Source: Nitrospirota bacterium
GTDB lineage: Bacteria; Nitrospirota; Thermodesulfovibrionia; Thermodesulfovibrionales; JdFR-86
DNA: 29,799 bases
Direction: 5' to 3'
NCBI GenBank assembly: GCA_030667205.1
Contig: DAOUWH010000001.1
Span: forward strand, 1 to 29,799
Made by a program: the position numbers and the translations under genes. The notes beneath the pieces were generated by a model. The model saw only the letters and a list, made by a program, of their open reading frames with translations. It made no database searches and was not told the origin of the DNA. Shown here one piece after another: positions 209-12,823 of the stretch (within the stretch, counting starts at the first letter, position 1; each line of letters starts with the position of its first letter).

Positions 209-1753
209 TCAAAGCCCCTTGCCCTCCAAAAACTCCCGTACGACCTCGGCGACTTCCCGTTTTTTCTGGTCGGCCTCGAAGTTCAAAAGCTGCATGGTCC
301 TGTCGTCTATAAGCCCCGAAAGCTGGGCCAGGGCCGCGCCCACCTCGGGGAATTCCTCAAGCACCCCCGCGCGGAGCACCGGCGCGGCGTGGTAGGGCGG
401 GAAGAACGATTTATCGTCCTCAAGGATGCTAAGGCGGTAGCCGGGGATGCGGCTGTCTGTGGAGAAGGCGATGATTATGTCCACCTGACCTTTTTTAAGG
501 GCGTCGTACATCAGGGAGGGGTCGAGGTCCAGGACCTTTCCGAACTCGATGCCATATGCTCGCCTGAACCCCGGATACCCGTCGGGCCGCTCCGAAAACT
601 CCGACGTAAATCCCGCCTTCATCGAAGGCGCGTGGTCCCTTAGGTCGCTGACCCTGCGCAGGCCGGACTTCTCCGCCGCTTCCTCTGTAACGGCAAAGGC
701 GTATGTGTTGTTAAACCCGAAGGGTTTTAACCAGCGAAGATCGAACCGTTTCAGGTATTCGCGTGAGACGAGGGCGTAGACCTCGTCGGGGTCCGTGGGC
801 CGTGTCTCGCTCTTGAGTATCGCGGTCAGGGCCGTGCCCGTGTACTCGGGGTACATGTCTATCTCGCCCTTTGCGAGCGCCTCGTGGCAGACCATCGTGC
901 CGCCGAGGTTGAAACGTCTCTCAACGCTGAGGCCCGTGGCCTCAATTCTCTGGGCCAGCATCTCGGCAAGGATAAGCTGCTCGGTGAAATTCTTGCTGCC
1001 GATTTTTACGGCCCCCTTCGGCCCGGCCTGCCAGAGCGTGCCAGCACCACCGATTAGAAACAAGACCGCGAGGGGCGCCAGCGACAGTAACAGGCCCGGC
1101 CTGCCGGACAGGGCCCCGAGGTTCTTCCTTCTTCTTTCGTTAAGACCCCACTCCACAGAGGATATCGCGAAGCTCACGTACAGGGCGAGCATCGCCGAGG
1201 GCACTGCGCCCAGCAGTATGAGTCTCGTGTCGGCAAGCGACAGGCCGCGGTTGATGAACTCTCCAAGGCCGCCCGCCCCGATAAATGCCGAGAGCGTGGC
1301 TATGCCCACGCTTATTACGGCAGCGGTCTTTATGCCCGCCATTATCACCGGCCTTGCAAGCGGCAGCTTCACAAGCCGCATCTCCTGTCTCGGGGTCATG
1401 CCCATGCCCTCTGCGGCCTCAAGGATGTCGGGCGAGACGCCCTCAAGCCCGGTCACGGTGTTCTGGATTATCGGAAGTAACGCATAGAGCGTAAGGGCGA
1501 TTATCGCCGGCACCACGCCTATCTTCCCTATGAGGGCAAGCAGGAAGGCAAGCATCGCCAGACTCGGCACGGTCTGCACTACCCCCACCAGTCCGAACGT
1601 AAAGGGCCTGAGCCAGAGCCGATGCGAGATATAAATGCCAAGCGGGATTCCAACCAGCACCGCCACCCCTGTGGAGACCCCGGTAAGGAGCAGGTGCTCC
1701 CTTGTGCGTAGCAGCAACTCGGGGAGACGCTCTGTGATGAACTCAACCGGCAT
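209..1753 (-). CDS. Glycine betaine/choline/carnitine-type ABC transporter, fused permease + substrate-binding protein (OpuBB/OpuBC-like)
   Basis: N-terminal TM domain with TVPSLA and EAA loop (EAAEGMGMT...VKLPLA). C-terminal OpuAC-type binding domain with GSKNFTEQ, YPEYTGT, GFNNTYA, RPDGY, FSTD, LEDDKSFFPPY. Confidence 0.93.
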   Translation of the reverse strand: MPVEFITERLPELLLRTREHLLLTGVSTGVAVLVGIPLGIYISHRLWLRPFTFGLVGVVQTVPSLAMLAFLLALIGKIGVVPAIIALTLYALLPIIQNTVTGLEGVSPDILEAAEGMGMTPRQEMRLVKLPLARPVIMAGIKTAAVISVGIATLSAFIGAGGLGEFINRGLSLADTRLILLGAVPSAMLALYVSFAISSVEWGLNERRRKNLGALSGRPGLLLSLAPLAVLFLIGGAGTLWQAGPKGAVKIGSKNFTEQLILAEMLAQRIEATGLSVERRFNLGGTMVCHEALAKGEIDMYPEYTGTALTAILKSETRPTDPDEVYALVSREYLKRFDLRWLKPFGFNNTYAFAVTEEAAEKSGLRRVSDLRDHAPSMKAGFTSEFSERPDGYPGFRRAYGIEFGKVLDLDPSLMYDALKKGQVDIIIAFSTDSRIPGYRLSILEDDKSFFPPYHAAPVLRAGVLEEFPEVGAALAQLSGLIDDRTMQLLNFEADQKKREVAEVVREFLEGKGL

Positions 1754-2514
1754 CAGTGGGCCTCCTTAAAGTCCTTAAGCTGCTCTATCGGTCTCAGAAG
1801 AAGGTCCTTGACGAACTCGGTCTTCGGGGCCGAGATTATCTCTTCTTTTGTGCCTATCTGCTGTAGCCGGCCTTCGTGGAGCACGGCGATGCGGTCGGCC
1901 AGGGTGAAGGCCTCGAAGATGTCGTGCGTTACGAATACGATGGTCTTCTTAATCGTCTGCTTGAGTTTTAAAAGCTCTTGCTGAAGCACGTTCCTTGTTA
2001 CGGCGTCCAGTGCGCCGAAGGGCTCGTCCATAAGGAGTATGGCGGGGTCCGCCGCCAGAGCCCTTGCCACCCCGGCCCGTTGCTGCTGGCCGCCGGAGAG
2101 CTCGTCGGGGTATCTGGGGCCGAAGGTCTCGGGCTCAAGCCCCACCATATCGAGCACCTCACCGGTCCTGTCCCTCTTCTTATCCTCGGGCCAGCCCTTG
2201 AGCCTCAGGACCACCGAGACGTTGTCGGCGATGCTCATGTGGGGGAAGAGCCCTATGCCCTGTATGGCATACCCTATGGAGCGCCGCACTTCAATGGGGT
2301 CTTGCCCGAGGATATCCTTCCCGTTAATCCTTATGACCCCGGATGAGGGCTCGATGAGGCGGTTTATCATCTTCAGGATGGTGGTCTTCCCACACCCCGA
2401 GGAGCCCAGCAGCACCAGGGTCTCGCCGTCGAGCACCTCGAAGGACACCCCACGCACGGCATGGGTGCCGTTAAAATGCTTCCGGACATCTATCAGTTCT
2501 ATCGCCTTTTCCAT
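1753..2514 (-). CDS. Osmoprotectant ABC transporter ATP-binding subunit (OpuBA/ProV-like, no CBS domains)
   Basis: Walker A GSSGCGKT, Q-loop YAIQGIGLFPH, signature LSGGQQQR, Walker B LLMDEPFGALD, H-loop FVTHD. TGATG stop/start coupling to the permease. Confidence 0.95.
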   Translation of the reverse strand: MEKAIELIDVRKHFNGTHAVRGVSFEVLDGETLVLLGSSGCGKTTILKMINRLIEPSSGVIRINGKDILGQDPIEVRRSIGYAIQGIGLFPHMSIADNVSVVLRLKGWPEDKKRDRTGEVLDMVGLEPETFGPRYPDELSGGQQQRAGVARALAADPAILLMDEPFGALDAVTRNVLQQELLKLKQTIKKTIVFVTHDIFEAFTLADRIAVLHEGRLQQIGTKEEIISAPKTEFVKDLLLRPIEQLKDFKEAH

Positions 2515-2543
2515 CGCGCTTCCGGGTTTTCTTGATTTTCAAC

Positions 2544-2573
2544 AGTTTATCAGAATACCCCGCCCCCTGCCAA
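2544..2573 (-). promoter_or_regulatory. Candidate sigma70 promoter of the ABC operon
   Basis: Minus strand TTGGCA-N18-TAAACT with TG extension (TG-A-TAAACT), about 30 nt upstream of ATG 2514. Confidence 0.45.
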
Positions 2574-2721
2574 GGGTAAAAATCCGGCCTGTACCGGACT
2601 TCCGGAGTCTCCACCGCCGTTTAGAGCAGGCCGTTTGCCGCTGAGAGGGCGGTCTCGGCCACAATGCTTTCCCGCATAAAAGTGTAATAATATCAATAGC
2701 TTAGAAGGATTATATTAGATA

Positions 2722-2730
2722 TGGTATAAT
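2722..2730 (+). promoter_or_regulatory. Candidate extended -10 promoter of the methyltransferase operon
   Basis: TG-G-TATAAT, a perfect extended -10, in an AT-rich intergenic region. It would imply a 5' leader of about 230 nt. Confidence 0.5.
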
Positions 2731-2802
2731 ACGGGACTTTTCCAGCTTATTAGTTATTAACGGGCGCACCAGTAAAAGGGGGAATACTAGATTAAAAAAC
2801 TT

Positions 2803-2827
2803 TGCGTTTATAAGTACTTATGACGCA
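2803..2827. promoter_or_regulatory. Palindrome, candidate operator or hairpin
   Basis: TGCGT-TT-ATAAGTACTTAT-G-ACGCA; perfect 12-bp core at 2810-2821. Confidence 0.4.
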
Positions 2828-2966
2828 TAACTACCAAAAAATTTCCTGAAGTTCCTGAATCTTTAAGACACCGCCCAAGTTGATGCCGTTTGTTATAGGT
2901 TGTTGATGGCTATTTGTCTATTTTGGGGGCAAAGGGACAAAAAGCAGGTCTTAAAGCGAAATTCGG

Positions 2967-3650
2967 TTGAAGGTTTTCGAGAACATAAGGCTTGATATCA
3001 AAAAGGACGATGTCTTCCGGTTGCTCGGCAAGAAGAGAAACGGGAGGTTTCATGTCAGGACCGAAAAGCGCCTGGATGAATTTATAGACAGGGCCCGCAA
3101 CATAGTAAAGCCGAAAATCGTTTACAGCACAAGAAGAATAAACAAGGTAGAAAAACATACCATAACCATCCAGGGGGGCGTGTCCTTCCGAAGCGGGCGG
3201 CTCTCGAAGTCCATTGGCAAGTGCGACAGGGTTGCCGTCTTCCTGGCCACCGTGGGGAAGAAGCTCGACGACATGATCCACTCCCTCATGAAGCAGAGGA
3301 AGATGGCCGACGCCTATATGTTCGACGCGATCGGCTCCGCGGCCGTCGAGGAGACGGTGGAGAGTTTTCAGAGGGGTTTTGATTCGCTCGCCGAAAAATC
3401 CAATGAGCGAAGCACTCTAAGGTTCAGCCCCGGGTACTGCGACTGGCGGATTCAGGAGCAGGAAAAACTCTTCAGCGTCGTGGACAGCGAGCTTGTGGGT
3501 GTCCAGCTTAGCCCGGGTTGCCTCATGACACCGAGGAAATCCGTCTCCGGCGTCTTCGGCATCGGGAGCGTGGATGATGTCGACAAGAGAAGGAACAACC
3601 CATGCGAACAGTGCAACATGCACTCATGCATAGCGAGGCGCGTATCGTAA
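2967..3650 (+). CDS. Stand-alone vitamin B12-dependent methionine synthase activation (reactivation) domain protein
   Basis: AVFLATVG, DAIGSAAVE, RFSPGYCDW...Q..LF, GVQLSPGCLMTPRKSVSGVFG, and C-terminal CEQCNMHSC. TTG start with weak RBS, so the start is uncertain. Confidence 0.85.
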   Translation: MKVFENIRLDIKKDDVFRLLGKKRNGRFHVRTEKRLDEFIDRARNIVKPKIVYSTRRINKVEKHTITIQGGVSFRSGRLSKSIGKCDRVAVFLATVGKKLDDMIHSLMKQRKMADAYMFDAIGSAAVEETVESFQRGFDSLAEKSNERSTLRFSPGYCDWRIQEQEKLFSVVDSELVGVQLSPGCLMTPRKSVSGVFGIGSVDDVDKRRNNPCEQCNMHSCIARRVS

Positions 3651-5128
3651 ATAGAAGCGGCATTAAGGCATTAAGTGAGCTAAAGGGGCTGGTGGGCGGC
3701 GCTTACAGGCCCCTTGGCAAGGACGACATAGAGGCCATCCATGAGACCTCGATGAGGGTCTTGTCCGAGGTCGGCATCAGGGTTAAGAACGCAGAGGCCC
3801 TGGAGCTTTTCGCCTCAGCCGGCGCGACCGTTGACCGCGAAAAAAACCTCGTGCGTATCGAGCCGGAGATGGTCATGGACCTGGTCTCAAAGGCCCCGCA
3901 TACCATTGGCCTTTACGGCCAGAGGCCCGAGCATACCCTTGAGGTCGGAGGCGAAAGGGTATACACAGGCACGGGGGGCACGGCCCTCTATGTGCTGGAG
4001 CCCGGCAGCGACGAGAAAAGGCGCGCCAGGCTCTCGGACCTCAGGGACATGGCAAGGCTTGTCGATGCCCTCGATAACATAGACTTCTTCATGCTCCCCG
4101 TCTTCCCCAGCGACGTCTCCGAAGAACACGTGGACGTAAACAGGTTCGGCACTGCCCTTACATACACCGGCAAGCACGTCACCGGCGGGGTGTACACGGC
4201 CGACGGGGTCAGGAATGTAATCCGGATGGCCGAGATAATCGCGGGCTCAAGATATGCCCTGATAGAGAAACCACTGATATCGATGGTGACCTGCTGCGGC
4301 ATTAGCCCCTTCGTGCTGGACGACCATTACAGCGCGCTTGCGCTGGAGGTCGCAAGGGCGGGGATACCCGTTATCACGCCGGTTGAGCCCCTGTGCGGCA
4401 CGACCGCGCCCATCACCCTGGCGGGCAACCTCGTCGTGCAGAACGTCGATACGCTTGCCGGGGTAATGCTCACTCAGTTGGCGAACCCCGGCACGCCCGT
4501 GATGTATGGCTGCATATCGAGCATCTCGGACATGAAGGACATGAAATACCTCAGCGGGGCGGTCGAGATGGGCATCATGAACGCCGCCGCATCGCAGTTG
4601 GCAAACTACTACGACCTTCCCATTTACGCGACCGCGGGGATGTCGGACTCAAAGACACTGGACGCGCAGGCGGGGGTGGAGTCTGCCATGACAAGCTTGC
4701 TTGTGGCCCTTGCCGGGGGCAATTTCATCCACGACGCCGCAGGCCTCCTGGAGTTCTGCCTCTGCGCGAGCCTCGAGAAATGCGTCATGGACGACGAGAT
4801 ACTCGGCATGGTAAAGCGCGCCCTCCAGGGCGTAAAGATCACCCCCGAGACACTTGCCTTCGACCTCCTGAAACAGGTCGGCCCCGGCGGGCATTACGTC
4901 ACATCAAGACATACCCGGAAGCACATGCGGGAAGAGCAGTACTTCCCTCGCCTGTGCGACCGCCAAACCCGTGAGGAGTGGCTCAAAAGCGGTGCTCTGG
5001 ACGCAAGACAGAGGGCCAGGCGGAAGGTCGAGGAGATACTCGGCAGGTCCGCAGACCCGGTCCTCCCCGAAGAGACAAGACGGACCTTAAGGAGGGAAAT
5101 AGAGGGGCTGGACACCGCCCTTATATGA
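3602..5128 (+). CDS. Trimethylamine methyltransferase (MttB/MtgB) superfamily MT1, non-pyrrolysine, paralog 1
   Basis: GGAYRPL...IHETSMRVLSEVG, TAPITLAGNLV, PGTPVMYG, GAVE, YATAGMSDSK.LDAQAG.E, ALAGGNFIHDAAGLLE, VGPGGHY. No in-frame TAG. ATG 3602 has AAGGA 7 nt upstream but overlaps the upstream gene by 49 nt; start uncertain. Confidence 0.92.
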   Translation: MRTVQHALMHSEARIVNRSGIKALSELKGLVGGAYRPLGKDDIEAIHETSMRVLSEVGIRVKNAEALELFASAGATVDREKNLVRIEPEMVMDLVSKAPHTIGLYGQRPEHTLEVGGERVYTGTGGTALYVLEPGSDEKRRARLSDLRDMARLVDALDNIDFFMLPVFPSDVSEEHVDVNRFGTALTYTGKHVTGGVYTADGVRNVIRMAEIIAGSRYALIEKPLISMVTCCGISPFVLDDHYSALALEVARAGIPVITPVEPLCGTTAPITLAGNLVVQNVDTLAGVMLTQLANPGTPVMYGCISSISDMKDMKYLSGAVEMGIMNAAASQLANYYDLPIYATAGMSDSKTLDAQAGVESAMTSLLVALAGGNFIHDAAGLLEFCLCASLEKCVMDDEILGMVKRALQGVKITPETLAFDLLKQVGPGGHYVTSRHTRKHMREEQYFPRLCDRQTREEWLKSGALDARQRARRKVEEILGRSADPVLPEETRRTLRREIEGLDTALI

Positions 5129-5934
5129 TGATAATAATCGGCGAAAATATAAACGCAAGCATCCCCAGGATAAAAAAGATGATCCTGGAGCATGACGAAG
5201 AGGCCCTGGGCGACCTTGCCGAAGAGCAGGAGAAAGCCGGGGCTTCGTTCATTGACGTCAACGTCGGCACCGGCGAAGGCACGGCCGAGGACGAGGTCAG
5301 GGACATGAAGTGGCTTGTGGGGCTCCTCAAGGACAGGGCAAAGGGCAAGCTGTGCATTGACAGCGCCGACCACAAGGTACTCAAGGCAGGCCTTGAGGCC
5401 GCAGGCGATAGGGCCGGGTTGGTAAACTCGGTCAAGGCCACGGAGAAAAACATGGCCGAGGTGCTGCCCCTTGTCTCTGAGTTCGGCGTCCCGGTAATTG
5501 CCCTCGCAATGGACGAGGGGGGAATCCCCGGAGACGTGCAGGGCCGCCTGAAGGCATGCGAGAAGGTCTTACAGGCCACCAGCCAGTACGGCATTGCGGA
5601 GGAAAGCATATTTTTCGACCCCCTTGTAATGCCCGTCAGCACTGATGCCTCGCAGGGCATGGTTACGCTTGAGACCCTCCGCGGGATAAAGGAAAATTTC
5701 CCCGGGGCAAAGACAGTGCTTGCGCTTAGCAATGTCTCGTTCGGTCTGCCGCGGCGTTCCCTCGTCAACAGGACGATGCTGAACATGGCGATGTTCCTCT
5801 CGGTCGACGCCCTTATCGCAAATCCCCTTGACGCAGGGCTCATGGGTGCGGTTAAGGCCGGCAACGTGGTCCTCGGCAAGGACCGCCATTGCAGGGCATA
5901 CACCCGCGCCGTAAGACAGGGGGCCATGGGATGA
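5125..5934 (+). CDS. Pterin-binding methyltetrahydrofolate:corrinoid methyltransferase (MT2, AcsE/MtgA-like, DHPS fold)
   Basis: IIGENINAS, FIDVNVG, LCIDS, GLVNSV, IALAMDEGGIP, FFDPLVMPV, LSNVSFGLP.R. Start moved from 4978 to ATG 5125 (ATGA overlap with the MttB1 stop). Confidence 0.9.
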   Translation: MMIIIGENINASIPRIKKMILEHDEEALGDLAEEQEKAGASFIDVNVGTGEGTAEDEVRDMKWLVGLLKDRAKGKLCIDSADHKVLKAGLEAAGDRAGLVNSVKATEKNMAEVLPLVSEFGVPVIALAMDEGGIPGDVQGRLKACEKVLQATSQYGIAEESIFFDPLVMPVSTDASQGMVTLETLRGIKENFPGAKTVLALSNVSFGLPRRSLVNRTMLNMAMFLSVDALIANPLDAGLMGAVKAGNVVLGKDRHCRAYTRAVRQGAMG

Positions 5935-7487
5935 CACAGGCGGCCGGGAAATTCCGGGAAGGCGTCGTAGTAAGGAAGCCTTTCGAGAGGCTCCTTTCCG
6001 AAGAGATAAGGGTGCTCGATGCGGCCTCCACAACCATACTTGAGAGGACGGGCATATTGTGCTTCAACGAAGAGGCGGTAGGGATATTCAGCGACCACAA
6101 GTGCGACGTACAAAGACACGACGAGCGCACCTATAAGGTAAAGATTCCCGCCCGTGTATTGAAGGACGCAATATCCGCGGCACCAACGAGGGTAAAGCTC
6201 GGGGCCCGGAACCCCGAAAACTCCCTCCTTCTGGATTCGGAAGTGCCGCGCATCTATTTCGGCAGCGGCTCGGAGACGAACATATGGCTTGATGCCGCGA
6301 TAGAGACCTTTAAAAGCGAACAAGACCCCGGCATCAAAAGAAGGCTTCCCGTCTTCACCGAAAGGCGCGGCACCGTCGAGAGGCTTTCTACGGCGGCCAG
6401 ACTTGCCGAGGAGCTTGAGCACCTGGACTTCTTCATCAGGCCCGTAAACATACAGGACGAGGACATTAACGAGGACAACCACGACGTAAACAAGTTCTAC
6501 GCCTCCCTGGCCAACACGACCAAGCACGTGCAGGCGGGCCTCACCAGCCTCGAGCAGCTCGACAACGTGCTCCGCATCGCCGAGACAATAGCCGGAGGGA
6601 AAGAGGCTTTAAGGGAAAACCCGGTTATCTCTTTCATAACGTGTACGGTTAAAAGCCCCCTACAGATGGTGGACGACGCCACGCAAAAGCTCATAGAGGT
6701 CGTAAAGCGGGGCATGCCCATAGTTATATCAAGCTCTCCGCAGGGGGGCTCGACCGCACCGATACAGGAGGGCGGGATGGTGGCCCAGATAAATGCCGAG
6801 ATACTCTCGGGCATCGCCCTTTCGCAGATGGTCAGGCCGGGCGCGCCGGTCATTTACGGCAGCGTCCCCGTCAGGGCGAGGATGGACAACCTGCACGACA
6901 TGTACGGGGCCCCCGAATTCAACCAATACAATATAGACTGCATACAGATGGCCAGGCACTACAGGGTGCCCTGTTACTCGACGGCGGGGGTGGGCGACTC
7001 ATCGGTGCCGGGCATGCAGGCCACGATGGAGAAGTTCTTCACGCACCTGCCTATCGCCATGGCCGGGGCGCAATACATACACTATGCCTTCGGGCTGCTG
7101 GAAAGGACAAATATCTTCTGCCCGGTCCAGGCCGTGCTGGACGACCAGCACATAGGGATGATAAAGATGTTCCTCTCGGCGCCGAGACTCGGGGAAGAGG
7201 ATATCGAGGGCGCAATCCGGCAGATAGACAAGGTGATGGACTCAAAGCAGAAGCTCTATGTGCGCTTCGTACGAAAGAGCCTCAGACAGGGCCTCGTATA
7301 TTCGCATTACCCGTTCGAGAGCAACGACGGCGAGGCGGGGGTGATTGAAAAGGCACTCGGACGCATGGAGGAACTCCTTTCAAGGCCCGCCAGGGAGCTT
7401 TTAAGTACGCAGGAGGACGAAATATTCGAGAAGGTACCGGGAATTCTGCCCAGGCTAAAGAGGCAGGGTGACCGTGCTGTTTTATAA
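5931..7487 (+). CDS. MttB-superfamily methyltransferase, non-pyrrolysine, divergent paralog 2
   Basis: ILERTGI, GARNPEN, KSPLQM, STAPIQEGGMVAQINAEILSGIALSQMVRPGAPVIYGS, GAPE, YSTAGVGDS, AMAGAQYIHYAFGLLE. Start moved to ATG 5931 (ATGA overlap). Confidence 0.85.
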   Translation: MTQAAGKFREGVVVRKPFERLLSEEIRVLDAASTTILERTGILCFNEEAVGIFSDHKCDVQRHDERTYKVKIPARVLKDAISAAPTRVKLGARNPENSLLLDSEVPRIYFGSGSETNIWLDAAIETFKSEQDPGIKRRLPVFTERRGTVERLSTAARLAEELEHLDFFIRPVNIQDEDINEDNHDVNKFYASLANTTKHVQAGLTSLEQLDNVLRIAETIAGGKEALRENPVISFITCTVKSPLQMVDDATQKLIEVVKRGMPIVISSSPQGGSTAPIQEGGMVAQINAEILSGIALSQMVRPGAPVIYGSVPVRARMDNLHDMYGAPEFNQYNIDCIQMARHYRVPCYSTAGVGDSSVPGMQATMEKFFTHLPIAMAGAQYIHYAFGLLERTNIFCPVQAVLDDQHIGMIKMFLSAPRLGEEDIEGAIRQIDKVMDSKQKLYVRFVRKSLRQGLVYSHYPFESNDGEAGVIEKALGRMEELLSRPARELLSTQEDEIFEKVPGILPRLKRQGDRAVL

Positions 7488-7499
7488 GGGGAGGATTTT

Positions 7500-8183
7500 A
7501 TGGCTGAAGAGCTTATAGAAAAGATTAAGGCAAACGTCATTCAGGGCAGGGTAAATAGCGAAGACGAAGGTTTTGACGAGGGGTTTGAAGGACAACCCGC
7601 CACCGTGGAACTCGTCCATGAGGCAATAGCCGGCGGGGTGGACGTGCACTCGTTAATCGTCGACGGCCTCACGAGCGGGATGAACGTGGTCGGCGAGAAG
7701 TTCGAAAGCGGCGAGTACCTCATCCCCGACATGCTCGCCTCGGCCGAGGCCGTGGGCGAGGCCATGGACGTCCTCGCTCCTCATCTTCAGAACGCCGGTG
7801 TAAAGAGCAAGGGCAAGGTCGTTATCGCGACGGTCAAGGGCGACCTGCACGACATAGGCAAGAACATCGTGGCAATAATGCTCAAGGGAGCGGGGTTCGA
7901 GATAATCGACCTCGGCACGGACGTCCCGGGCAAGAGGATCCTTGATTCGGTGGGGCAGAACAAGGCGGAGTTCCTGGGCCTCTCGGCTCTCCTGACGACC
8001 ACGATGCGCGAGATGCAGAACATTATCGAGGCCCTCAAGGAAAAGGGCATAAGGCAGGACGTGAAGGTCATGATAGGCGGTGCGCCGACATCGCCGGAGT
8101 TCGCCGGGAAGATAGGGGCCGATGTGCACTGCGCCGATGCCTTCCAGGCGGTCGAGTACGCAAATTCAGTTGCGGAGGCGTAA
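7500..8183 (+). CDS. Cognate corrinoid (B12-binding) protein, MttC/MtgC-like
   Basis: Cap domain GLTSGMNVVGEKFESGEYLIPDML; B12 motif DLHDIG...LSALL...IGGAP; RBS GGAGGA. Confidence 0.95.
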   Translation: MAEELIEKIKANVIQGRVNSEDEGFDEGFEGQPATVELVHEAIAGGVDVHSLIVDGLTSGMNVVGEKFESGEYLIPDMLASAEAVGEAMDVLAPHLQNAGVKSKGKVVIATVKGDLHDIGKNIVAIMLKGAGFEIIDLGTDVPGKRILDSVGQNKAEFLGLSALLTTTMREMQNIIEALKEKGIRQDVKVMIGGAPTSPEFAGKIGADVHCADAFQAVEYANSVAEA

Positions 8184-9436
8184 TGGGCAACAGACACCAG
8201 ATACCGTATACCGAGGCCGTTAGCACCGGGCACTACGCGAAGAAGTCGGGGCTTTACGGCAAGTACGACAACGTCCGCCGCTTCTGGGAAGACGATACCA
8301 CGAGGCTCTTCATCCGCCCCTACCTCAAGGAGATGGTCGACAGGAAGGCGGGCAGGCTCCAGCGCCTGAGGATACTGGACCTGGGCTGCGGGGCCGGCGA
8401 CGGCTACGACCTCCTCACCGGCATTACCGTTAAGGACGTGGGCATCTACGAATACGCCGTCAACCTCATAAACCAGGAAATGCTCGGCTTCTACATGGGA
8501 GTCGACATAAGCGCCGACCTGCTGGCCCAGGCCAGGGAACAATGGGGAGGCAACGACAAGGTAGTCTTCGCAGAGAGTGATATCTCCGAAGGCCTCGATA
8601 TCGCCGAGGGACCTTTTGATGTCTACTTCTCCTCATATGGCACCTTGTCCCACTTCAGGGCGGAGCAGGCCGTAAAGCTCCTGGCCAGTATAGCGAAGCA
8701 TTCCGAAAGCAATGCATTGGTGGTGCTGGACTGGCTCGGGCGGTACTCCTATGAATGGCAGGACCTGTGGTCGGCCAATACGGACGAAGAGGAGTTCATG
8801 GACTACCGGATATCCTACATCTATCCCCCGGAGGAGAGGGACAGAGTGGACATACAGTCCTTCCCCCTGAAGCTCGTATCCAGAGACGAACTGCAGCGCA
8901 TAATAGACGAGGCGAGGAGCCTCTCGGGTATTGAGATAAAGGTAAATCAGTTCTTCGACAGGTCGATATTCGTGGGCAGGCATAGTGACACCGCCGAGTA
9001 CAACAGGCATTGCACCCCGGTGCGCGAGGCCGTAAACTCGCTGCTTGAGCCCAACACACGCACGGACCTTGCCTCCCTCATCGTGGACTATGTCCCCAAA
9101 AACGGCTTCCCGCAGCTTAATAAGTACTTCGAGGGCTTCGCGATGAGCTGGAACACCCTTGTAAAGCACACCATCGAATTCCTCTCGGAATACCAGGAGG
9201 GGGCAGGCAATGCGGGCGGAAGCGCGGAGCACTACCAGTTCTATCCCGAACCGCTCAGGATAGCCGTGGAGACGATGCAGAAGGTCGTCGACACAACCGG
9301 CGGCCTGCTGGGGGATTCGAGGGCCAACATGATAGAGCCGCAGCTTGCCTACGCGCTAAGAAGGCTGGAGATGAACCTTCAGTCAGGGCTGGGTACCGGA
9401 CACGGCCTGGCCGCGATATTAGAGATAAACAAGTAG
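8183..9436 (+). CDS. Class I SAM-dependent methyltransferase of unknown substrate (417 aa)
   Basis: Motif I RILDLGCGAGDG, acidic post-I GVDIS, FDVYFSSYG. TAATG coupling to the corrinoid gene. Long C-terminal extension. Confidence 0.8.
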   Translation: MGNRHQIPYTEAVSTGHYAKKSGLYGKYDNVRRFWEDDTTRLFIRPYLKEMVDRKAGRLQRLRILDLGCGAGDGYDLLTGITVKDVGIYEYAVNLINQEMLGFYMGVDISADLLAQAREQWGGNDKVVFAESDISEGLDIAEGPFDVYFSSYGTLSHFRAEQAVKLLASIAKHSESNALVVLDWLGRYSYEWQDLWSANTDEEEFMDYRISYIYPPEERDRVDIQSFPLKLVSRDELQRIIDEARSLSGIEIKVNQFFDRSIFVGRHSDTAEYNRHCTPVREAVNSLLEPNTRTDLASLIVDYVPKNGFPQLNKYFEGFAMSWNTLVKHTIEFLSEYQEGAGNAGGSAEHYQFYPEPLRIAVETMQKVVDTTGGLLGDSRANMIEPQLAYALRRLEMNLQSGLGTGHGLAAILEINK

Positions 9437-9486
9437 CCACCCGACATGGCATCTCAGGCAGGTCTGTGTAAAACTCCGGTTGTCCC

Positions 9487-11004
9487 CTAAAGGCTAAGCC
9501 ACTGCCCCACGGTCTCCGCCGCGAGCGGGGCGCCGAAACTCTCACTGAAGATGCGGAAATAATAAAGCTCTTCCTTGCTCCGGATTATCTGGTGCCTGGC
9601 CTGCGCCTCTTCGAACTCCGCGTCGCTTATCGTCAGTTCGAAATACTCCCGCAGGACGTCTGCCGAGCCCGAGCCCTGGGAGAACTCCTGCTTGAGCCTC
9701 CAGACGATTGACTCAGGCAGTTCGTCCTCGTAGGCCTTTCTGAAAATCCATTTCTCTATTTTCCGGTCGCCCTCGGTCCTGAGCTTCAGCTCCGGGTCTA
9801 TGGCAAGGGAGTAGTCCAGCAACTCTCCGGATATCAGCGGGGTGACCACGCGCACGGAGTTGCACATGTTCATGCGGTCGAGCCTGAGTGAGGCGTTGTT
9901 GTGCAGGAAATCGAGGCATTTTATCTGGTGGCTGAAAAGCTCTTCCCTTGGAAGGGATTTAAACTGGCTGTAGCCGCAAAATACCTCGTCGCCGCCCTCG
10001 CCGGACAGTAGCACCTGTACGCCCTCCCTGCTTGCGTACCTGGATATCAGGAAGTTCGACACAGAGCTCCTTACCAGGGACGGGTCGAAGGACTCGAGGT
10101 GATAGATTACCTCGGGCAGCACTTCAAGCATCTCCTGCAGCCCGATGATGAGCTCGTGGTGCTCGGTGCCAAGGTGTTCCGAGACTACCCGGGCGCTGTG
10201 TATGTCGGGGCTTTCGCCTACGCCGAGCGCGAAGGTTTTTAAACGCGCGCCCCCGCCGAATTTTTTCTTATAGGCCCTGCTTGCCAGAGCGGCTATCACG
10301 CTGCTGTCTATGCCCCCGCTCAGGAGGCTGGCGGTGGGCAGGCTGAAGTCCACCCTGCTGTGGAAACTGCGGGCTATGATGTCCCTTATGCTGTTTAAGA
10401 TAGTGTCCTCGTCGGTGTGCATGTCCTCGGGCGGGGATTTCGGAAGCTCCGCGTAACGTGTCAGCTTGCCGGTGCCGTCCATGTAGTGTCCGGCTGGAAA
10501 CTCGTAGACCTCGTCGGTGACCGCGGTTACGGCCTTGAGCTCTGATGAGAGAAAGACGTTTCCGTTTTTCAGGCCGTAAAACAGGGTCCTTATCCCCAGC
10601 AGGTCTCTTGCCGCGAAGAGTTCTTCGCCGTCTGAGATGACGAAGGTGAAAACCGCGTCCCCCAGATGCTGGAGCATCTCCGTGCCGAGTTCGCGATATA
10701 GCTGCAGCAGCAGCCGGTCCTCCTTGAGCGGGCCGTCCGGGACCCCGTGCCGGGCTGCCAGCACGTGCCAGTTTCCCATCTGCCCGTCATAGCATATCCT
10801 GGCATCGTCGTTTGGCCCTGATGAAAGAGGCAGGGACATCTCACTCGCTACGGGGCTTTCGGCCTTAAGGTAGTTCTGGAACATGATGACCTTACTGCCC
10901 ACATATACGCCCTCGGCGTGCGGCCCTCTATGTTTGATGGTCCCGGACATTGCCTTGACTTCGGCGAGTCCGGGCGTGCCGTATGCTACTGCAATACCTC
11001 CCAT
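9487..11004 (-). CDS. Asparagine-synthetase-B-like ATP-dependent amide ligase with degenerate glutaminase domain
   Basis: KHRGP, ARDLLGIRTLFYG, PP-loop LLSGGIDSS, LSGEGGDEVFCGY, KWIFRKA, RLKQEFSQG. N-terminus is MGGI rather than MCGI. Confidence 0.85.
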   Translation of the reverse strand: MGGIAVAYGTPGLAEVKAMSGTIKHRGPHAEGVYVGSKVIMFQNYLKAESPVASEMSLPLSSGPNDDARICYDGQMGNWHVLAARHGVPDGPLKEDRLLLQLYRELGTEMLQHLGDAVFTFVISDGEELFAARDLLGIRTLFYGLKNGNVFLSSELKAVTAVTDEVYEFPAGHYMDGTGKLTRYAELPKSPPEDMHTDEDTILNSIRDIIARSFHSRVDFSLPTASLLSGGIDSSVIAALASRAYKKKFGGGARLKTFALGVGESPDIHSARVVSEHLGTEHHELIIGLQEMLEVLPEVIYHLESFDPSLVRSSVSNFLISRYASREGVQVLLSGEGGDEVFCGYSQFKSLPREELFSHQIKCLDFLHNNASLRLDRMNMCNSVRVVTPLISGELLDYSLAIDPELKLRTEGDRKIEKWIFRKAYEDELPESIVWRLKQEFSQGSGSADVLREYFELTISDAEFEEAQARHQIIRSKEELYYFRIFSESFGAPLAAETVGQWLSL

Positions 11005-11122: not shown

Positions 11123-12823
11123 TTACTGGTCTGCGGGGGCGTTGGCTTCCCGCAGGCCTTTTAAGCTCAGCTGTACGCTGCGGTTGCCGTTCCAGTCGTT
11201 TATTGTAGCGGCAAAGGCCGCATCCACCTTGCCTGCCTCATTTATGAAATCGCAGAGCCCGCCCATGCCCCAACCTATCGCGTCGTGGGCGCAGTTTTTG
11301 CCCCTGAGCTTGACCTTCAGGTGGTTGTTGCCAACCACGCGGGGGTTCATCGCCTCAAGGTCCCTTGAGCCGAGTACCGGCTCGGGGTTTCCGTAGCCAA
11401 ACGGCTCGAGCGCCTCAAACTCCCTTACGAGGCCGAAGGTGACGTCCTTTAAAACCACCTCGGCATCGATATCGAGGGTGGGCGTGAAGTCCTCCATGAG
11501 GGAGGCGGCCACCACCTCCATCTTTCTCTGGAACGCCTCAAGCTCCGTGGCCCTGAGCCTCAGCCCGGCGGCCTGCTTGTGGCCGCCGAATCCCGTCAGG
11601 TGTTCGCTTGCCGCTGTCAGGGCGGCGTGGACGTCGAAGCCGGGGATGCTCCTTGCCGAGCCCTTTGCCGTGCCGTCGTCCTTTATGGAGAGCACGAACG
11701 TCGGCCTCTGGTACGTCTCCGCGATCCTTGAGGCAACGATGCCGACCACGCCCTCGTGCCAGCCCTCGCCCGCAAGCACGATTGCGGAGCCGTAACCCTT
11801 CTTCTCGACAAGCTCAATGGCCTCCTCAAGGACGGCCCCCTCCGTTTTTTGCCTCTCGTAATTCTTACGGTTTAGCGAGGCCGCTATCTCCTCGGCCCTG
11901 CTTGCGGAGTCCGTAAGCAGAAGCTCGACGACCTCCGCGGCGTCCCCCAGGCGGCCCGCTGCGTTTATCCTGGGCACCAGGGTGAAGGCCACAAGCCTGG
12001 CCTTGAGTGCCCGGGAGCCAAGCTCCGCAACTTCCTTCAAAGCCCTCGCGCCCGGCCTCAGGGCATCGACAAGGGCCGGAAGCCCCTCCCTTACGATGGT
12101 GCGGTTCTCACCGACAAGTGGCACCGAATCCGCAATCGTACCGAGCGCGGCAAGGTCAAGAAACTCGCGGGGCTCAAAGAGCGAGGGCTCCTTCATCGAA
12201 AGCGCCTGCACGGCCTTAAACGCGATGCCGGCCCCGGAAAGCCCGGCGACCGCGGAGCCTTCCGCGGAAACTTTGGGGTTTATGACGGCAAGTGCCTCTG
12301 GTATGCCTCTGGTGTCGGGTTCATGGTGGTCGGTTATTATGAGGTCAATTCCGCTTGCTCGCGCGGCCTCGGCGGCCTCAAACGAGGTTATCCCGCAGTC
12401 GACAGTTATGATGAGGCCAGCCCCGAATGCCTTTGCCTGCTCTACGGCAGGGGGGTGGAAACCGTAGCCCTCGGCGAAGCGGTTTGGTATGTAGTACTGC
12501 ACTACGATGCCCAGTCGCCTCAGCGCCCCGGCCATTATGGCCGTTGCCGTAAGGCCGTCTGCGTCGTAGTCGCCGTGTATGAAGACCTTTAAACCCTTGT
12601 GTTTTGCCCCAAGGACGGCATCGACAAGTGTGCTCATGCCCTCGATGTCGAATGGGTCGCACATCGCATCAAGGCCCTGGGACATGAAGGAGTGGACGTC
12701 CTCCGGGGTCTTGACGCCCCGGTTTATCAGTACCTGCGCCAGTGCGGGCGATATCGATGCCGCGCGGGAGAGGTAGGAGATGTACCCGGGGTTGGTTTTT
12801 TTAAGCAGCCAGCGCCTGTGCAT
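11123..12823 (-). CDS. recJ: Single-stranded DNA-specific exonuclease RecJ
   Basis: GDYDADG, ITVDCGI, ITDHH, LGTIAD, PRINAAGRL, GSARS, FGGHKQAAG; follows secDF. Confidence 0.96.
   Translation of the reverse strand: MHRRWLLKKTNPGYISYLSRAASISPALAQVLINRGVKTPEDVHSFMSQGLDAMCDPFDIEGMSTLVDAVLGAKHKGLKVFIHGDYDADGLTATAIMAGALRRLGIVVQYYIPNRFAEGYGFHPPAVEQAKAFGAGLIITVDCGITSFEAAEAARASGIDLIITDHHEPDTRGIPEALAVINPKVSAEGSAVAGLSGAGIAFKAVQALSMKEPSLFEPREFLDLAALGTIADSVPLVGENRTIVREGLPALVDALRPGARALKEVAELGSRALKARLVAFTLVPRINAAGRLGDAAEVVELLLTDSASRAEEIAASLNRKNYERQKTEGAVLEEAIELVEKKGYGSAIVLAGEGWHEGVVGIVASRIAETYQRPTFVLSIKDDGTAKGSARSIPGFDVHAALTAASEHLTGFGGHKQAAGLRLRATELEAFQRKMEVVAASLMEDFTPTLDIDAEVVLKDVTFGLVREFEALEPFGYGNPEPVLGSRDLEAMNPRVVGNNHLKVKLRGKNCAHDAIGWGMGGLCDFINEAGKVDAAFAATINDWNGNRSVQLSLKGLREANAPADQ

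Follow-up and report, generated by a model that had tools for sequence, protein, structure and literature searches.

A gene island of anaerobic sediment bacteria joins a vitamin-B12 methyl-transfer chain to an uncharacterized SAM methyltransferase (SAM-MT), usually together with an asparagine-synthetase-like enzyme and often with a betaine-type importer, and this arrangement points to an undescribed way of building or recycling a methylated solute, although its function is inferred. A relative of the 417-aa SAM-MT occurs in 338 species genomes, and the island is patchily spread through Thermodesulfovibrionia/Nitrospirota and many Desulfobacterota orders. No description of it was found in the literature that could be searched. 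The island was examined in a 29,799-nucleotide stretch (the window) of a Nitrospirota bacterium (assembly GCA_030667205.1, contig DAOUWH010000001.1), in which its components are organized as follows.

209 to 1753, minus strand: ABC permease fused to a trimethylammonium-class substrate-binding protein (SBP) domain, an architecture of the BilE/EgtU/OpuBC-OpuCC type
1753 to 2514, minus strand: ABC ATPase with a ProV-like core, 253 aa, without CBS domains
2515 to 2966, no strand: 452-nt AT-rich divergent intergenic region
2967 to 3650, plus strand: Act, a stand-alone MetH-type reactivation protein with four invariant Cys
3602 (or 3626) to 5128, plus strand: MttB1, a non-pyrrolysine MttB-superfamily methyltransferase
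5125 to 5934, plus strand: MT2, a pterin-binding methyl-THF:corrinoid methyltransferase
5931 to 7487, plus strand: MttB2, a remodeled non-pyrrolysine MttB homolog
7500 to 8183, plus strand: Cor, a corrinoid protein (His-on B12-binding)
8183 to 9436, plus strand: SAM-MT, a family-specific class I SAM methyltransferase of 417 aa
9487 to 11004, minus strand: type A AsnB-like ATP-dependent amide ligase with a dismantled glutaminase site, convergent with the operon

The genes, their junctions, and the Cys-less N terminus of the AsnB-like protein are all as given in the original prediction. ATGA junctions are present at 5125 to 5128 and at 5931 to 5934, a 12-nt gap lies at 7488 to 7499, and Cor and the SAM-MT are translationally coupled through TAATG at 8181 to 8185. 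The Act/MttB1 overlap is 49 nt if MttB1 starts at ATG 3602, or 25 nt if it starts at ATG 3626; a start at GTG 3692 is excluded because the conserved K-G-L-x-G-G N terminus of the orthologs lies upstream of it. In the divergent intergenic region no Rfam family reaches its gathering score, and one promoter-like site faces the importer.

Profile searches assign the importer and the upstream part of the chain. The permease fusion matches BPD_transp_1 (PF00528) and OpuAC (PF04069), and its SBP domain scores 190 to 220 bits to the solved OpuBC/OpuCC, Archaeoglobus fulgidus ProX, EgtUC, and Lmo1422; the ATPase matches PF00005 and TIGR01186 proV (300 bits), although only over profile positions 5 to 230 of 363. 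Act matches PF02965 (31 bits; cutoff, 25), its best solved relative is Thermotoga maritima 1J6R (E, 1e-9), and R-F-S-P-G-Y and C158/C213/C216/C221 are kept in at least 95% of 50 orthologs. MttB1 matches PF06253 with 372 bits and scores 276 bits to Desulfitobacterium hafniense MtgB, but the glycine-betaine contacts of MtgB, Y97/R312/H348/F356 (PMC13080624), read G/Y/D/C, and Met sits at the pyrrolysine position in 54 of 54 orthologs. MT2 matches PF00809 and NF005719 (275 bits; cutoff, 259).

MttB2 scores 202 bits to PF06253 and matches only at profile positions 24 to 411 of 500; its best solved relative is the pyrrolysine-containing MttB 7XCL (139 bits), and Val sits at the pyrrolysine position in 73 of 73. 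Cor matches PF02607 and PF02310, as well as TIGR02370 (201 bits), and its D-L-H-D-I-G motif is invariant. The SAM-MT matches Methyltransf_25 but has no NCBIfam or Pfam family-level match, has about 100 invariant columns among 26 homologs, and finds only 309 clusters with E <= 1e-3 among 1.8 billion representatives. The nearest named solved relative of its profile is the Plasmodium phosphoethanolamine N-methyltransferase (PfPMT), an amine trimethylase, although this similarity is very weak (E, 4e-5) and restricted to the Rossmann core. As with glycine/sarcosine/dimethylglycine N-methyltransferases and phosphoethanolamine N-methyltransferase, this is a class I SAM-MT that could methylate an amine stepwise, but its C-terminal half of about 200 aa and its N-terminal G-K-Y-D-N-V-R-R-F-W-E-D motif have no characterized counterpart.

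The arrangement is not chance, as it recurs colinearly in dozens of loci at 50 to 75% protein identity. The test set by the original prediction, whether SAM-MT and AsnB-like homologs usually occur without the MttB cluster, comes out in favor of the island: MttB2 and Cor lie directly upstream of the SAM-MT in 68 of 68 Nitrospirota and Desulfobacterota loci that reach far enough, and the full Act-MttB1-MT2-MttB2-Cor set is colinear in 48 of 51. In 251 Desulfobacterota genomes the SAM-MT is in 12 and MttB2 orthologs are in 13; these are the same 12, on the same contigs, plus one with MttB2 at a contig end. One genome, G002, has MttB2-Cor-SAM-MT-AsnB but no MttB1 ortholog and no MT2 at the locus. 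The constant company of MttB2, Cor, and the SAM-MT might suggest that the SAM-MT and the amide ligase mature MttB2 or its corrinoid partner, either through a posttranslational modification or small cofactor that stands in for pyrrolysine (the biosynthesis of which also appears to use an ATP-dependent amide ligase) or through direct methylation of the corrinoid by the SAM-MT. This is very unlikely, however, as there is no direct evidence for it, and the associations of the SAM-MT and of the tail described below count against it.

The SAM-MT is followed by one of two interchangeable tails, an AsnB-like gene, either Cys-less or canonical (63 of 77 loci), or a ProA-GCS2-DUF362 module (10 of 77 loci). 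The AsnB-like protein of the window scores 212 bits to PF00733, 389.5 bits to the AsnB model (below the 499 cutoff), and 232 bits to Escherichia coli AsnB, and it is the only full Asn_synthase gene in the genome. It shares the PP-loop adenylating domain of asparagine synthetase B and its glutaminase-dead relatives (beta-lactam synthetase and CarA), but its N terminus is M-G-G-I, without Cys, and in the alignment to E. coli AsnB, RGPD reads RGPH and NGEIYN reads DGQMGN, while the SGGxDSS loop is kept; orthologs start MSGF, MSGL, or MAGF. The Cys-less form is not specific to the island, as canonical MCGI AsnB or the ProA-GCS2-DUF362 module replaces it among close relatives. The tails are true amino acid enzymes: type B passes the AsnB cutoff (568 > 499), and ProA scores 501 to 544 bits against a cutoff of 289. 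In 201 Nitrospirota genomes, AsnB-like genes (E <= 1e-30) occur only beside the cassette, the one other case being a contig that ends there.

AsnB and the SAM-MT are also coupled outside the island, as natural AsnB::SAM-MT fusions with canonical AsnB, here designated P0146 (901 aa), P0148 (934 aa, starting MCGIL), and P0252. The fusions lie next to an ABC ATPase and a permease-SBP fusion, with no MttB or corrinoid genes nearby, and the SAM-MT, AsnB, and importer trio also exists on its own. The tails and fusions bear on a further possibility, that the AsnB-like ligase (or ProA-GCS2) and the SAM-MT derivatize the imported compound before demethylation, for example by masking a carboxylate as an amide. 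There is a precedent in the Eubacterium limosum choline pathway (MthK/MthB/MthC/MthA), in which phosphocholine rather than choline is the MthB substrate and mthK is clustered with mthB (PMC12155760), although there the accessory enzyme is a kinase whose phosphate is recycled, and here the accessories are a SAM methyltransferase and an ATP-dependent amide ligase. Replacement of the carboxylate-binding R312/H348 of MtgB by Y/D in MttB1 and by Y/Y in MttB2 fits a substrate without a free carboxylate, and both tails act on side-chain or terminal carboxylates. Nonetheless, this reading is improbable, as methylating a compound with SAM in order to demethylate it afterwards gains nothing, fused AsnB::SAM-MT occurs where there are no MttB genes, and the match of type B to the curated asparagine synthase B model suggests Asp as its substrate.

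Several features look like those of a methylotrophy island. The proposal that a MetH-type domain acts instead of RamA is overstated, as the genome has two RamA/RACo genes and a RamA-type gene flanks the cassette in about 10 loci; a classical MttB system with DUF1638 is adjacent in at least six loci, and because such neighboring systems also carry MttB pairs, the presence of two MT1 genes is not unusual. Among the closest known systems is the MtgB/MtgC/MtgA glycine betaine:THF methyltransferase system of D. hafniense (also Methanolobus vulcani), with a non-pyrrolysine MttB-family MT1, a His-on corrinoid protein, a pterin-binding MT2, and a linked betaine transporter, but the cassette differs from it in the loss of all four glycine-betaine contacts in MttB1, in the second, remodeled MttB, and in the SAM-MT, the AsnB or ProA-GCS2 tail, and the MetH-type reactivation protein. 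The island could be catabolic, with an imported quaternary amine (glycine betaine, DMSP-like, or another betaine) demethylated by MttB1 and MttB2 onto Cor, and MT2 passing the methyl groups to THF for oxidation through the reverse Wood-Ljungdahl pathway coupled to sulfate reduction; the SAM-MT and tail enzymes would then be a colocated but chemically separate solute-synthesis or product-processing module under the same regulator. All characterized MttB systems work this way, usually next to a betaine transporter (PMC13080624, PMC12155760, PMC8604678), the importer is of the trimethylammonium class, the genome has ACS and MTHFR, and the window's DNA occurs in marine sediment and cold-seep metagenomes, where such amines are plentiful. 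Plain catabolism leaves unexplained, however, why MttB2 orthologs never occur without the SAM-MT, why a SAM-consuming enzyme is translationally coupled inside a catabolic operon, and why AsnB-like genes in Nitrospirota are confined to the cassette, and MttB1 lacks the MtgB contacts. This reading is doubtful but nearly as likely as the one preferred here.

The preferred reading, which is itself tentative, is that the island builds a betaine-type (N-methylated, amino acid-derived) compatible solute. The tail would supply or neutralize the amino acid precursor, through side-chain amidation of Asp or reduction of Glu, and Cor would be loaded with methyl groups from CH3-THF of the Wood-Ljungdahl pathway by MT2 and/or from an imported quaternary amine by MttB1. 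MttB2 would run in the methylating direction and pass these groups to the amine of the precursor, the SAM-MT would perform the thermodynamically demanding quaternizing step, Act would repair oxidized Co(II) by MetH-style reductive methylation, and the importer would recapture or scavenge the solute. The original prediction was partly supported; of its two inferred functions, demethylation coupled to remethylation or amidation of the product and reverse flow from CH3-THF to a methylated solute, the evidence mildly favors the second.

An Opu-type transporter lies within 10 kb of the cassette in about 26 of 82 loci, and a MarR regulator often accompanies the island. Anabolic and osmotic signals are consistent with the preferred reading. 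MetK and AhcY follow the tail in five to seven loci. Neighbors include MscS/BON, TrkH/TrkA, a Na+/H+ exchanger, and Usp, and a Usp::SAM-MT fusion exists. The presence of ACS and MTHFR indicates that a CH3-THF pool exists, and from Thauer-type free energies, methyl transfer from CH3-THF to ammonia or to a primary or secondary amine is likely downhill by roughly 25 kJ/mol, whereas formation of a quaternary amine is probably not, which would fit two MttBs plus one SAM-MT. However, every characterized MttB-superfamily enzyme is a demethylase of quaternary amines or, with pyrrolysine, of methylamines, and no corrinoid-dependent N-methylation from CH3-THF is known. Organisms with the AsnB::SAM-MT fusion manage without MttB genes, so the SAM-MT can presumably do every methylation itself; the importer's ATPase lacks the CBS domains of osmosensing OpuA; and the flanking RamA-type genes and classical MttB systems, and the absence of MttB1 and MT2 from the G002 locus, also weigh against it. 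No substrate was identified for any enzyme, and because the two tails make different products (Asn versus glutamate semialdehyde/proline) yet swap among closely related SAM-MTs, a single defined solute is hard to name.

The chain also has a MetH-like logic, which is consistent with the preferred reading, with pterin-binding, B12-binding (DxHxxG), and SAM-type reactivation modules present as separate proteins, as in split forms of cobalamin-dependent methionine synthase (the T. maritima stand-alone reactivation protein 1J6R and Ruegeria/Phaeobacter MtgC-MtgD-MtgE; PMC12478193), in which the methyl group likewise comes from, or goes to, CH3-THF. MT2, Cor, and Act could conceivably act with an MttB homolog in place of the homocysteine-binding domain to regenerate methionine for the SAM-MT. 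The genome has no PF02574 and no PF01717 hit, only one of five other cassette genomes has a convincing MetH homocysteine domain, MetK and AhcY are clustered in some loci, and a corrinoid shared between betaine demethylation and methionine synthesis is known in Ruegeria (PMC12478193), a system that relies on RamA/DUF1638. This role is nevertheless quite unlikely: almost the whole order lacks PF02574 whether or not the cassette is present, and the cassette is in only 3 of 201 genomes of the phylum and therefore cannot be their methionine synthase. No conserved thiol-activating metal site was found, and the candidate Cys356 of MttB1 is not kept in a distant cassette (L090). The four invariant Cys of Act are not covered by the 1J6R alignment.

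The window carries a divergent importer, six tightly packed genes on the plus strand, and a convergent AsnB-like gene that is followed by recJ. The features are as follows:

209-1753, minus strand, ABC permease fused to an OpuAC-type binding domain
1753-2514, minus strand, ABC ATPase
2967-3650, plus strand, Act, a MetH-activation-like protein
3602 or 3626 to 5128, plus strand, MttB1
5125-5934, plus strand, MT2, a pterin-binding methyltransferase
5931-7487, plus strand, MttB2
7500-8183, plus strand, Cor, a B12-binding protein
8183-9436, plus strand, SAM-MT, a 417-aa class I SAM methyltransferase
9487-11004, minus strand (convergent), AsnB-like gene

The junctions ATGA, ATGA, a 12-nt gap, and TAATG are as described in the original prediction, although the first overlap is 49 or 25 nt, depending on which ATG is used for MttB1; a downstream GTG start is excluded because the conserved N-terminus of the orthologues lies upstream of it. 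No riboswitch was identified upstream of the operon at Rfam gathering scores. Some RNA-library contigs cover parts of Act, MT2/MttB2, the SAM-MT, and AsnB, but depth is low, many of the contigs come from relatives, and DNA carry-over cannot be excluded, such that this is weak evidence and not proof of cotranscription.

An alignment-based scan of one genome per species identified SAM-MT relatives in 338 genomes (a search with the single protein found nothing), and 80 loci were retrieved from Thermodesulfovibrionia/Nitrospirota and many Desulfobacterota orders, including the cultured Desulfoferrobacter suflitae DRH4. Searching these loci with the window's proteins using tblastn shows that MttB2 and Cor lie directly upstream of the SAM-MT in 68 of 68 loci that reach 2.6 kb upstream, and that Act-MttB1-MT2-MttB2-Cor is colinear in 48 of 51 loci that reach 6.3 kb. 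The three exceptions are informative: one genome has Act-MttB1-MT2 elsewhere, one has a split MttB1, and one has no MttB1 orthologue at all, and the invariable core is therefore MttB2-Cor-SAM-MT. In genome G001 (locus L009), the MttB1 orthologue is in two pieces (C1:589641-590735 and C1:984247-984846) about 390 kb apart on a closed MAG chromosome, one of which is still beside the cassette, reflecting either a rearrangement or a misassembly. In an even sample of 251 Desulfobacterota genomes, the SAM-MT is present in 12, and MttB2 orthologues (56-60% identity) are present in those same 12, on the same contigs, plus one genome in which the contig ends just after MttB2 and part of Cor. No hit lies between E = 1e-90 and E = 1e-185, so MttB2 is a distinct orthogroup. 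Three MttB2 orthologue matches (G313:C70:3202-4737, G346:C14:16304-17839, and G389:C23:56845-58380) carry one in-frame stop (TGA or TAA) within the matched stretch, although the stops may lie at the edges of the match. The cassette is in only 3 of 201 Nitrospirota genomes, and is thus accessory and patchy.

Of 77 loci with at least 1.8 kb downstream of the SAM-MT (a few of which are drawn from the same genome), 63 have an AsnB-like gene, 10 have a ProA-GCS2-DUF362/4Fe-4S module instead, and 4 have neither. The AsnB-like genes are either type A (about 60% identical to that of the window, with N-termini MSGF, MSGL, MAGF, or MGGI, and thus no nucleophile Cys), type B (about 35% identical, with a canonical MCGI), or both. 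Type B passes NCBI's curated asparagine synthase B cutoff, and the ProA genes pass the glutamate-5-semialdehyde dehydrogenase cutoff. In one Thermodesulfovibrionales locus (L003), a BioA-like aminotransferase (11268-12671; TIGR00508, 537 bits) and a PDDEXK gene sit between the SAM-MT and the ProA-GCS2-DUF362 tail. The tail types are intermixed on a maximum-likelihood tree of the SAM-MT, with type A requiring at least 13 changes and the ProA tail turning up in about five separate places; the tails have therefore been exchanged repeatedly without deep divergence of the SAM-MT. In the 201 Nitrospirota genomes, AsnB-like genes at E <= 1e-30 occur only in the three cassette genomes, adjacent to the SAM-MT, the one other case being a genome in which both types lie at the end of a 7.7-kb contig. 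In Desulfobacterota, 7 of 12 cassette genomes have such a gene, compared to 10 of 239 others. The outcome that would have counted against the original prediction, that SAM-MT and AsnB-like homologues usually occur without the MttB cluster, is therefore not observed.

An exhaustive HMMER search of 1.8 billion representative proteins found only 309 clusters related to the SAM-MT. Notable among these are P0146 (901 aa), P0148 (934 aa, starting MCGIL), and the fragment P0252, which are natural fusions of a canonical AsnB to this SAM-MT. Two further fusions are P0179, in which a universal stress protein (Usp) is joined to the SAM-MT (597 aa), and P0171, in which the tail of a B12-binding domain is joined to the SAM-MT (350 aa), although the latter may be a gene-call artifact. 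The AsnB::SAM-MT fusion genes lie next to an ABC ATPase and a permease-SBP fusion like that of the window but have no MttB or corrinoid genes, and their neighbors include a Na+/H+ exchanger, MarR, MFS, and CBS proteins. SAM-MT, AsnB, and importer thus form a module of their own, and the corrinoid chain is an addition found in anaerobes.

Both MttB homologues match the MttB superfamily profile (PF06253; MttB1, 372 bits; MttB2, 202 bits; cutoff, 25), but neither reaches the cutoff for the pyrrolysine-type trimethylamine methyltransferase (TIGR02369; 450 and 262 bits, respectively; cutoff, 525). There is no in-frame TAG at the active site; the codon at that position is ATG (Met) in 54 of 54 MttB1 orthologues, and the residue is Val in 73 of 73 MttB2 orthologues. 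The Rfam family PYLIS_3 (the pyrrolysine insertion sequence of mttB) matches above its gathering score within MttB1 at 4640-4739 of the window, as well as in loci L003, L004, L005, L024, and L046, with the match starting exactly at the codon equivalent to the pyrrolysine codon, but this most likely reflects coding conservation rather than a working element. MttB1 scores 276 bits to Desulfitobacterium hafniense MtgB, but the four residues shown to hold glycine betaine (Y97, R312, H348, and F356; PMC13080624) read G, Y, D, and C in MttB1. MttB2 is closest to the pyrrolysine enzyme (139 bits), has an unmatched C-terminus, and reads G, Y, Y, and T at those positions.

The remaining components of a corrinoid methyl-transfer chain are encoded in the same operon. 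Cor matches PF02607 and PF02310 and has an invariant DxHxxG motif, and MT2 scores 275 bits to NF005719 (cutoff, 259). Act matches the MetH reactivation domain (PF02965; 31.1 bits; cutoff, 25) and resembles the stand-alone Thermotoga maritima protein 1J6R (E 1e-9). F-S-P-G-Y is kept in at least 95% of 50 orthologues, and the window reads R-F-S-P-G-Y, corresponding to the R-x-x-x-G-Y loop that probably binds SAM in MetH. Act also has four invariant Cys residues, C158 plus a C-terminal CxxCxxxxC, which may form a metal or Fe-S site. No RACo_C_ter/ASKHA and Fe-S corrinoid activase is encoded in the window, but the genome has two RACo/RamA-type genes on other contigs, and a 668-aa RACo gene flanks the cassette in about 10 related loci. 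The original prediction that Act stands in place of RamA is therefore too strong, although Act is the constant partner.

The importer's binding domain (PF04069, 225 bits) scores 190-220 bits to OpuBC/OpuCC, archaeal ProX, the ergothioneine binder EgtUC, and Lmo1422, all of which are trimethylammonium binders. The ATPase is 253 aa, with only ABC_tran-type domains found and a proV profile match over positions 5-230 of 363, and it lacks the tandem CBS domains that act as the ionic-strength sensor in OpuA-type importers. The AsnB-like protein starts with M-G-G-I, and its aligned RGPD and NGEIYN motifs read RGPH and DGQMGN relative to Escherichia coli AsnB, whereas the PP-loop synthetase domain is intact (PF00733, 212 bits; S-G-G-I-D-S-S aligned to S-G-G-L-D-S-S). 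It scores 389.5 bits to the asparagine synthetase B model, below the cutoff of 499.

The SAM-MT has a generic class I fold (Methyltransf_25/31/11), with L-D-x-G-C-G-x-G-D-G conserved in 26 homologues, and a 200-aa extension that nothing explains. Fold searches with a predicted model (pLDDT 73) gave only generic class I methyltransferases at TM < 0.4, with rat GNMT at rank 43 (TM 0.33), and a protein atlas returned unnamed clusters of about 410-435 aa. There is no NCBIfam match beyond E about 5e-4 to BioC/ChlM/UbiE, and thus no family-level match to the glycine/sarcosine/dimethylglycine N-methyltransferases of betaine synthesis; the best named solved hit of the family profile is Plasmodium phosphoethanolamine N-methyltransferase (E = 4e-5). 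Prediction of a complex between the SAM-MT and Cor returned no answer (score, 0.00), which is not evidence either way.

MttB2 and Cor thus accompany the SAM-MT in all 68 loci that extend far enough, the SAM-MT is functionally coupled to AsnB by fusion and by co-occurrence, and both are linked to a betaine-class importer. SAM-dependent methylation is anabolic and is cotranslated with the corrinoid protein, and we therefore tentatively favor a solute-building role. In this scheme, the tail supplies or neutralizes an Asp- or Glu-derived precursor, Cor is loaded by MT2 from CH3-THF or by MttB1 from an imported quaternary amine, MttB2 delivers these methyl groups to the amine, and the SAM-MT quaternizes it. 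Methyl transfer from CH3-THF to ammonia or to a primary or secondary amine is expected to be downhill by about 25 kJ/mol, while the last step is not, which would fit two MttBs plus one SAM-MT. The genome encodes acetyl-CoA synthase and MTHFR, so a CH3-THF pool is available; its only MTHFR (MetF) match (G000:C209:513-1382, G000 being the window's genome) has one in-frame TGA that could be a selenocysteine codon or a sequencing error. Related loci carry MetK and AhcY after the tail and are flanked by MscS/BON, TrkH/TrkA, and Usp genes, and the window's DNA recurs in marine sediment and cold-seep metagenomes. However, all known MttBs are demethylases, organisms with the AsnB::SAM-MT fusion need no MttB, RamA and classical MttB systems sit nearby, and the two tails make different products. 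In loci L031, L035, L046, L062, L064, and L084, a second, classical system (MT2, a corrinoid protein, and two MttB paralogues at 31-38% identity, with DUF1638 in some) lies 5-8 kb beyond the AsnB-like gene, and paired MttB genes are therefore common in these genomes. Plain catabolism with a colocated synthesis module is almost as likely, but the SAM-MT/AsnB link and the four-Cys MetH-type repair protein would then still be unexplained additions to a well-studied system. Derivatization of the substrate in the manner of MthK (PMC12155760) is unlikely, and a role for the SAM-MT in maturation is more doubtful still.

A MetH-like role in methionine/SAM regeneration is also only a weak alternative. 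The genome shows no MetH homocysteine-binding domain (PF02574) and no MetE (PF01717), as do most of five other cassette genomes, but PF02574 is missing from almost every sampled genome of the same order, with or without the cassette. The MttB1 residues C202, C235, and C356 are invariant in close orthologues and were considered as a Zn-thiolate site, but C356 is Ala in the distant cassette L090, and C202 is shared with MttB2 and Pyl-MttB. In genome G003, a 248-aa ORF (locus L098, 4359-5105, minus strand) with a weak MetE-catalytic-domain match (37 bits, first half of the profile) lies divergently next to the relocated Act-MttB1-MT2 sub-operon.

MttB-family genes are widely counted in sediment, gut, and subsurface metagenomes as markers of methylated-amine breakdown. 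Although the parts of this cassette belong to known families, no description was found in full-text literature searches of the combination of a distinct MttB orthogroup paired with a specific SAM-MT, interchangeable AsnB or ProA-GCS2 tails, and a four-Cys MetH-type repair protein, or of a biosynthetic route for asparagine, glutamine, or homoserine betaines, and there is a real chance of new chemistry. It is possible, although less likely than not, that MttB2 is a corrinoid-dependent N-methyltransferase running opposite to every characterized MttB enzyme, taking methyl groups loaded on the corrinoid protein by MT2 (from Wood-Ljungdahl CH3-THF) or MttB1 (from an imported quaternary amine) and putting them on the amine of an amino acid-derived precursor, with SAM spent only on the last, quaternizing step. 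This would be an energy-saving route to a betaine-type compatible solute in energy-limited sulfate reducers and the first SAM-sparing biological N-methylation, and would reveal an unknown compatible solute of marine sulfate reducers, including partners of methane- and ethane-oxidizing archaea.
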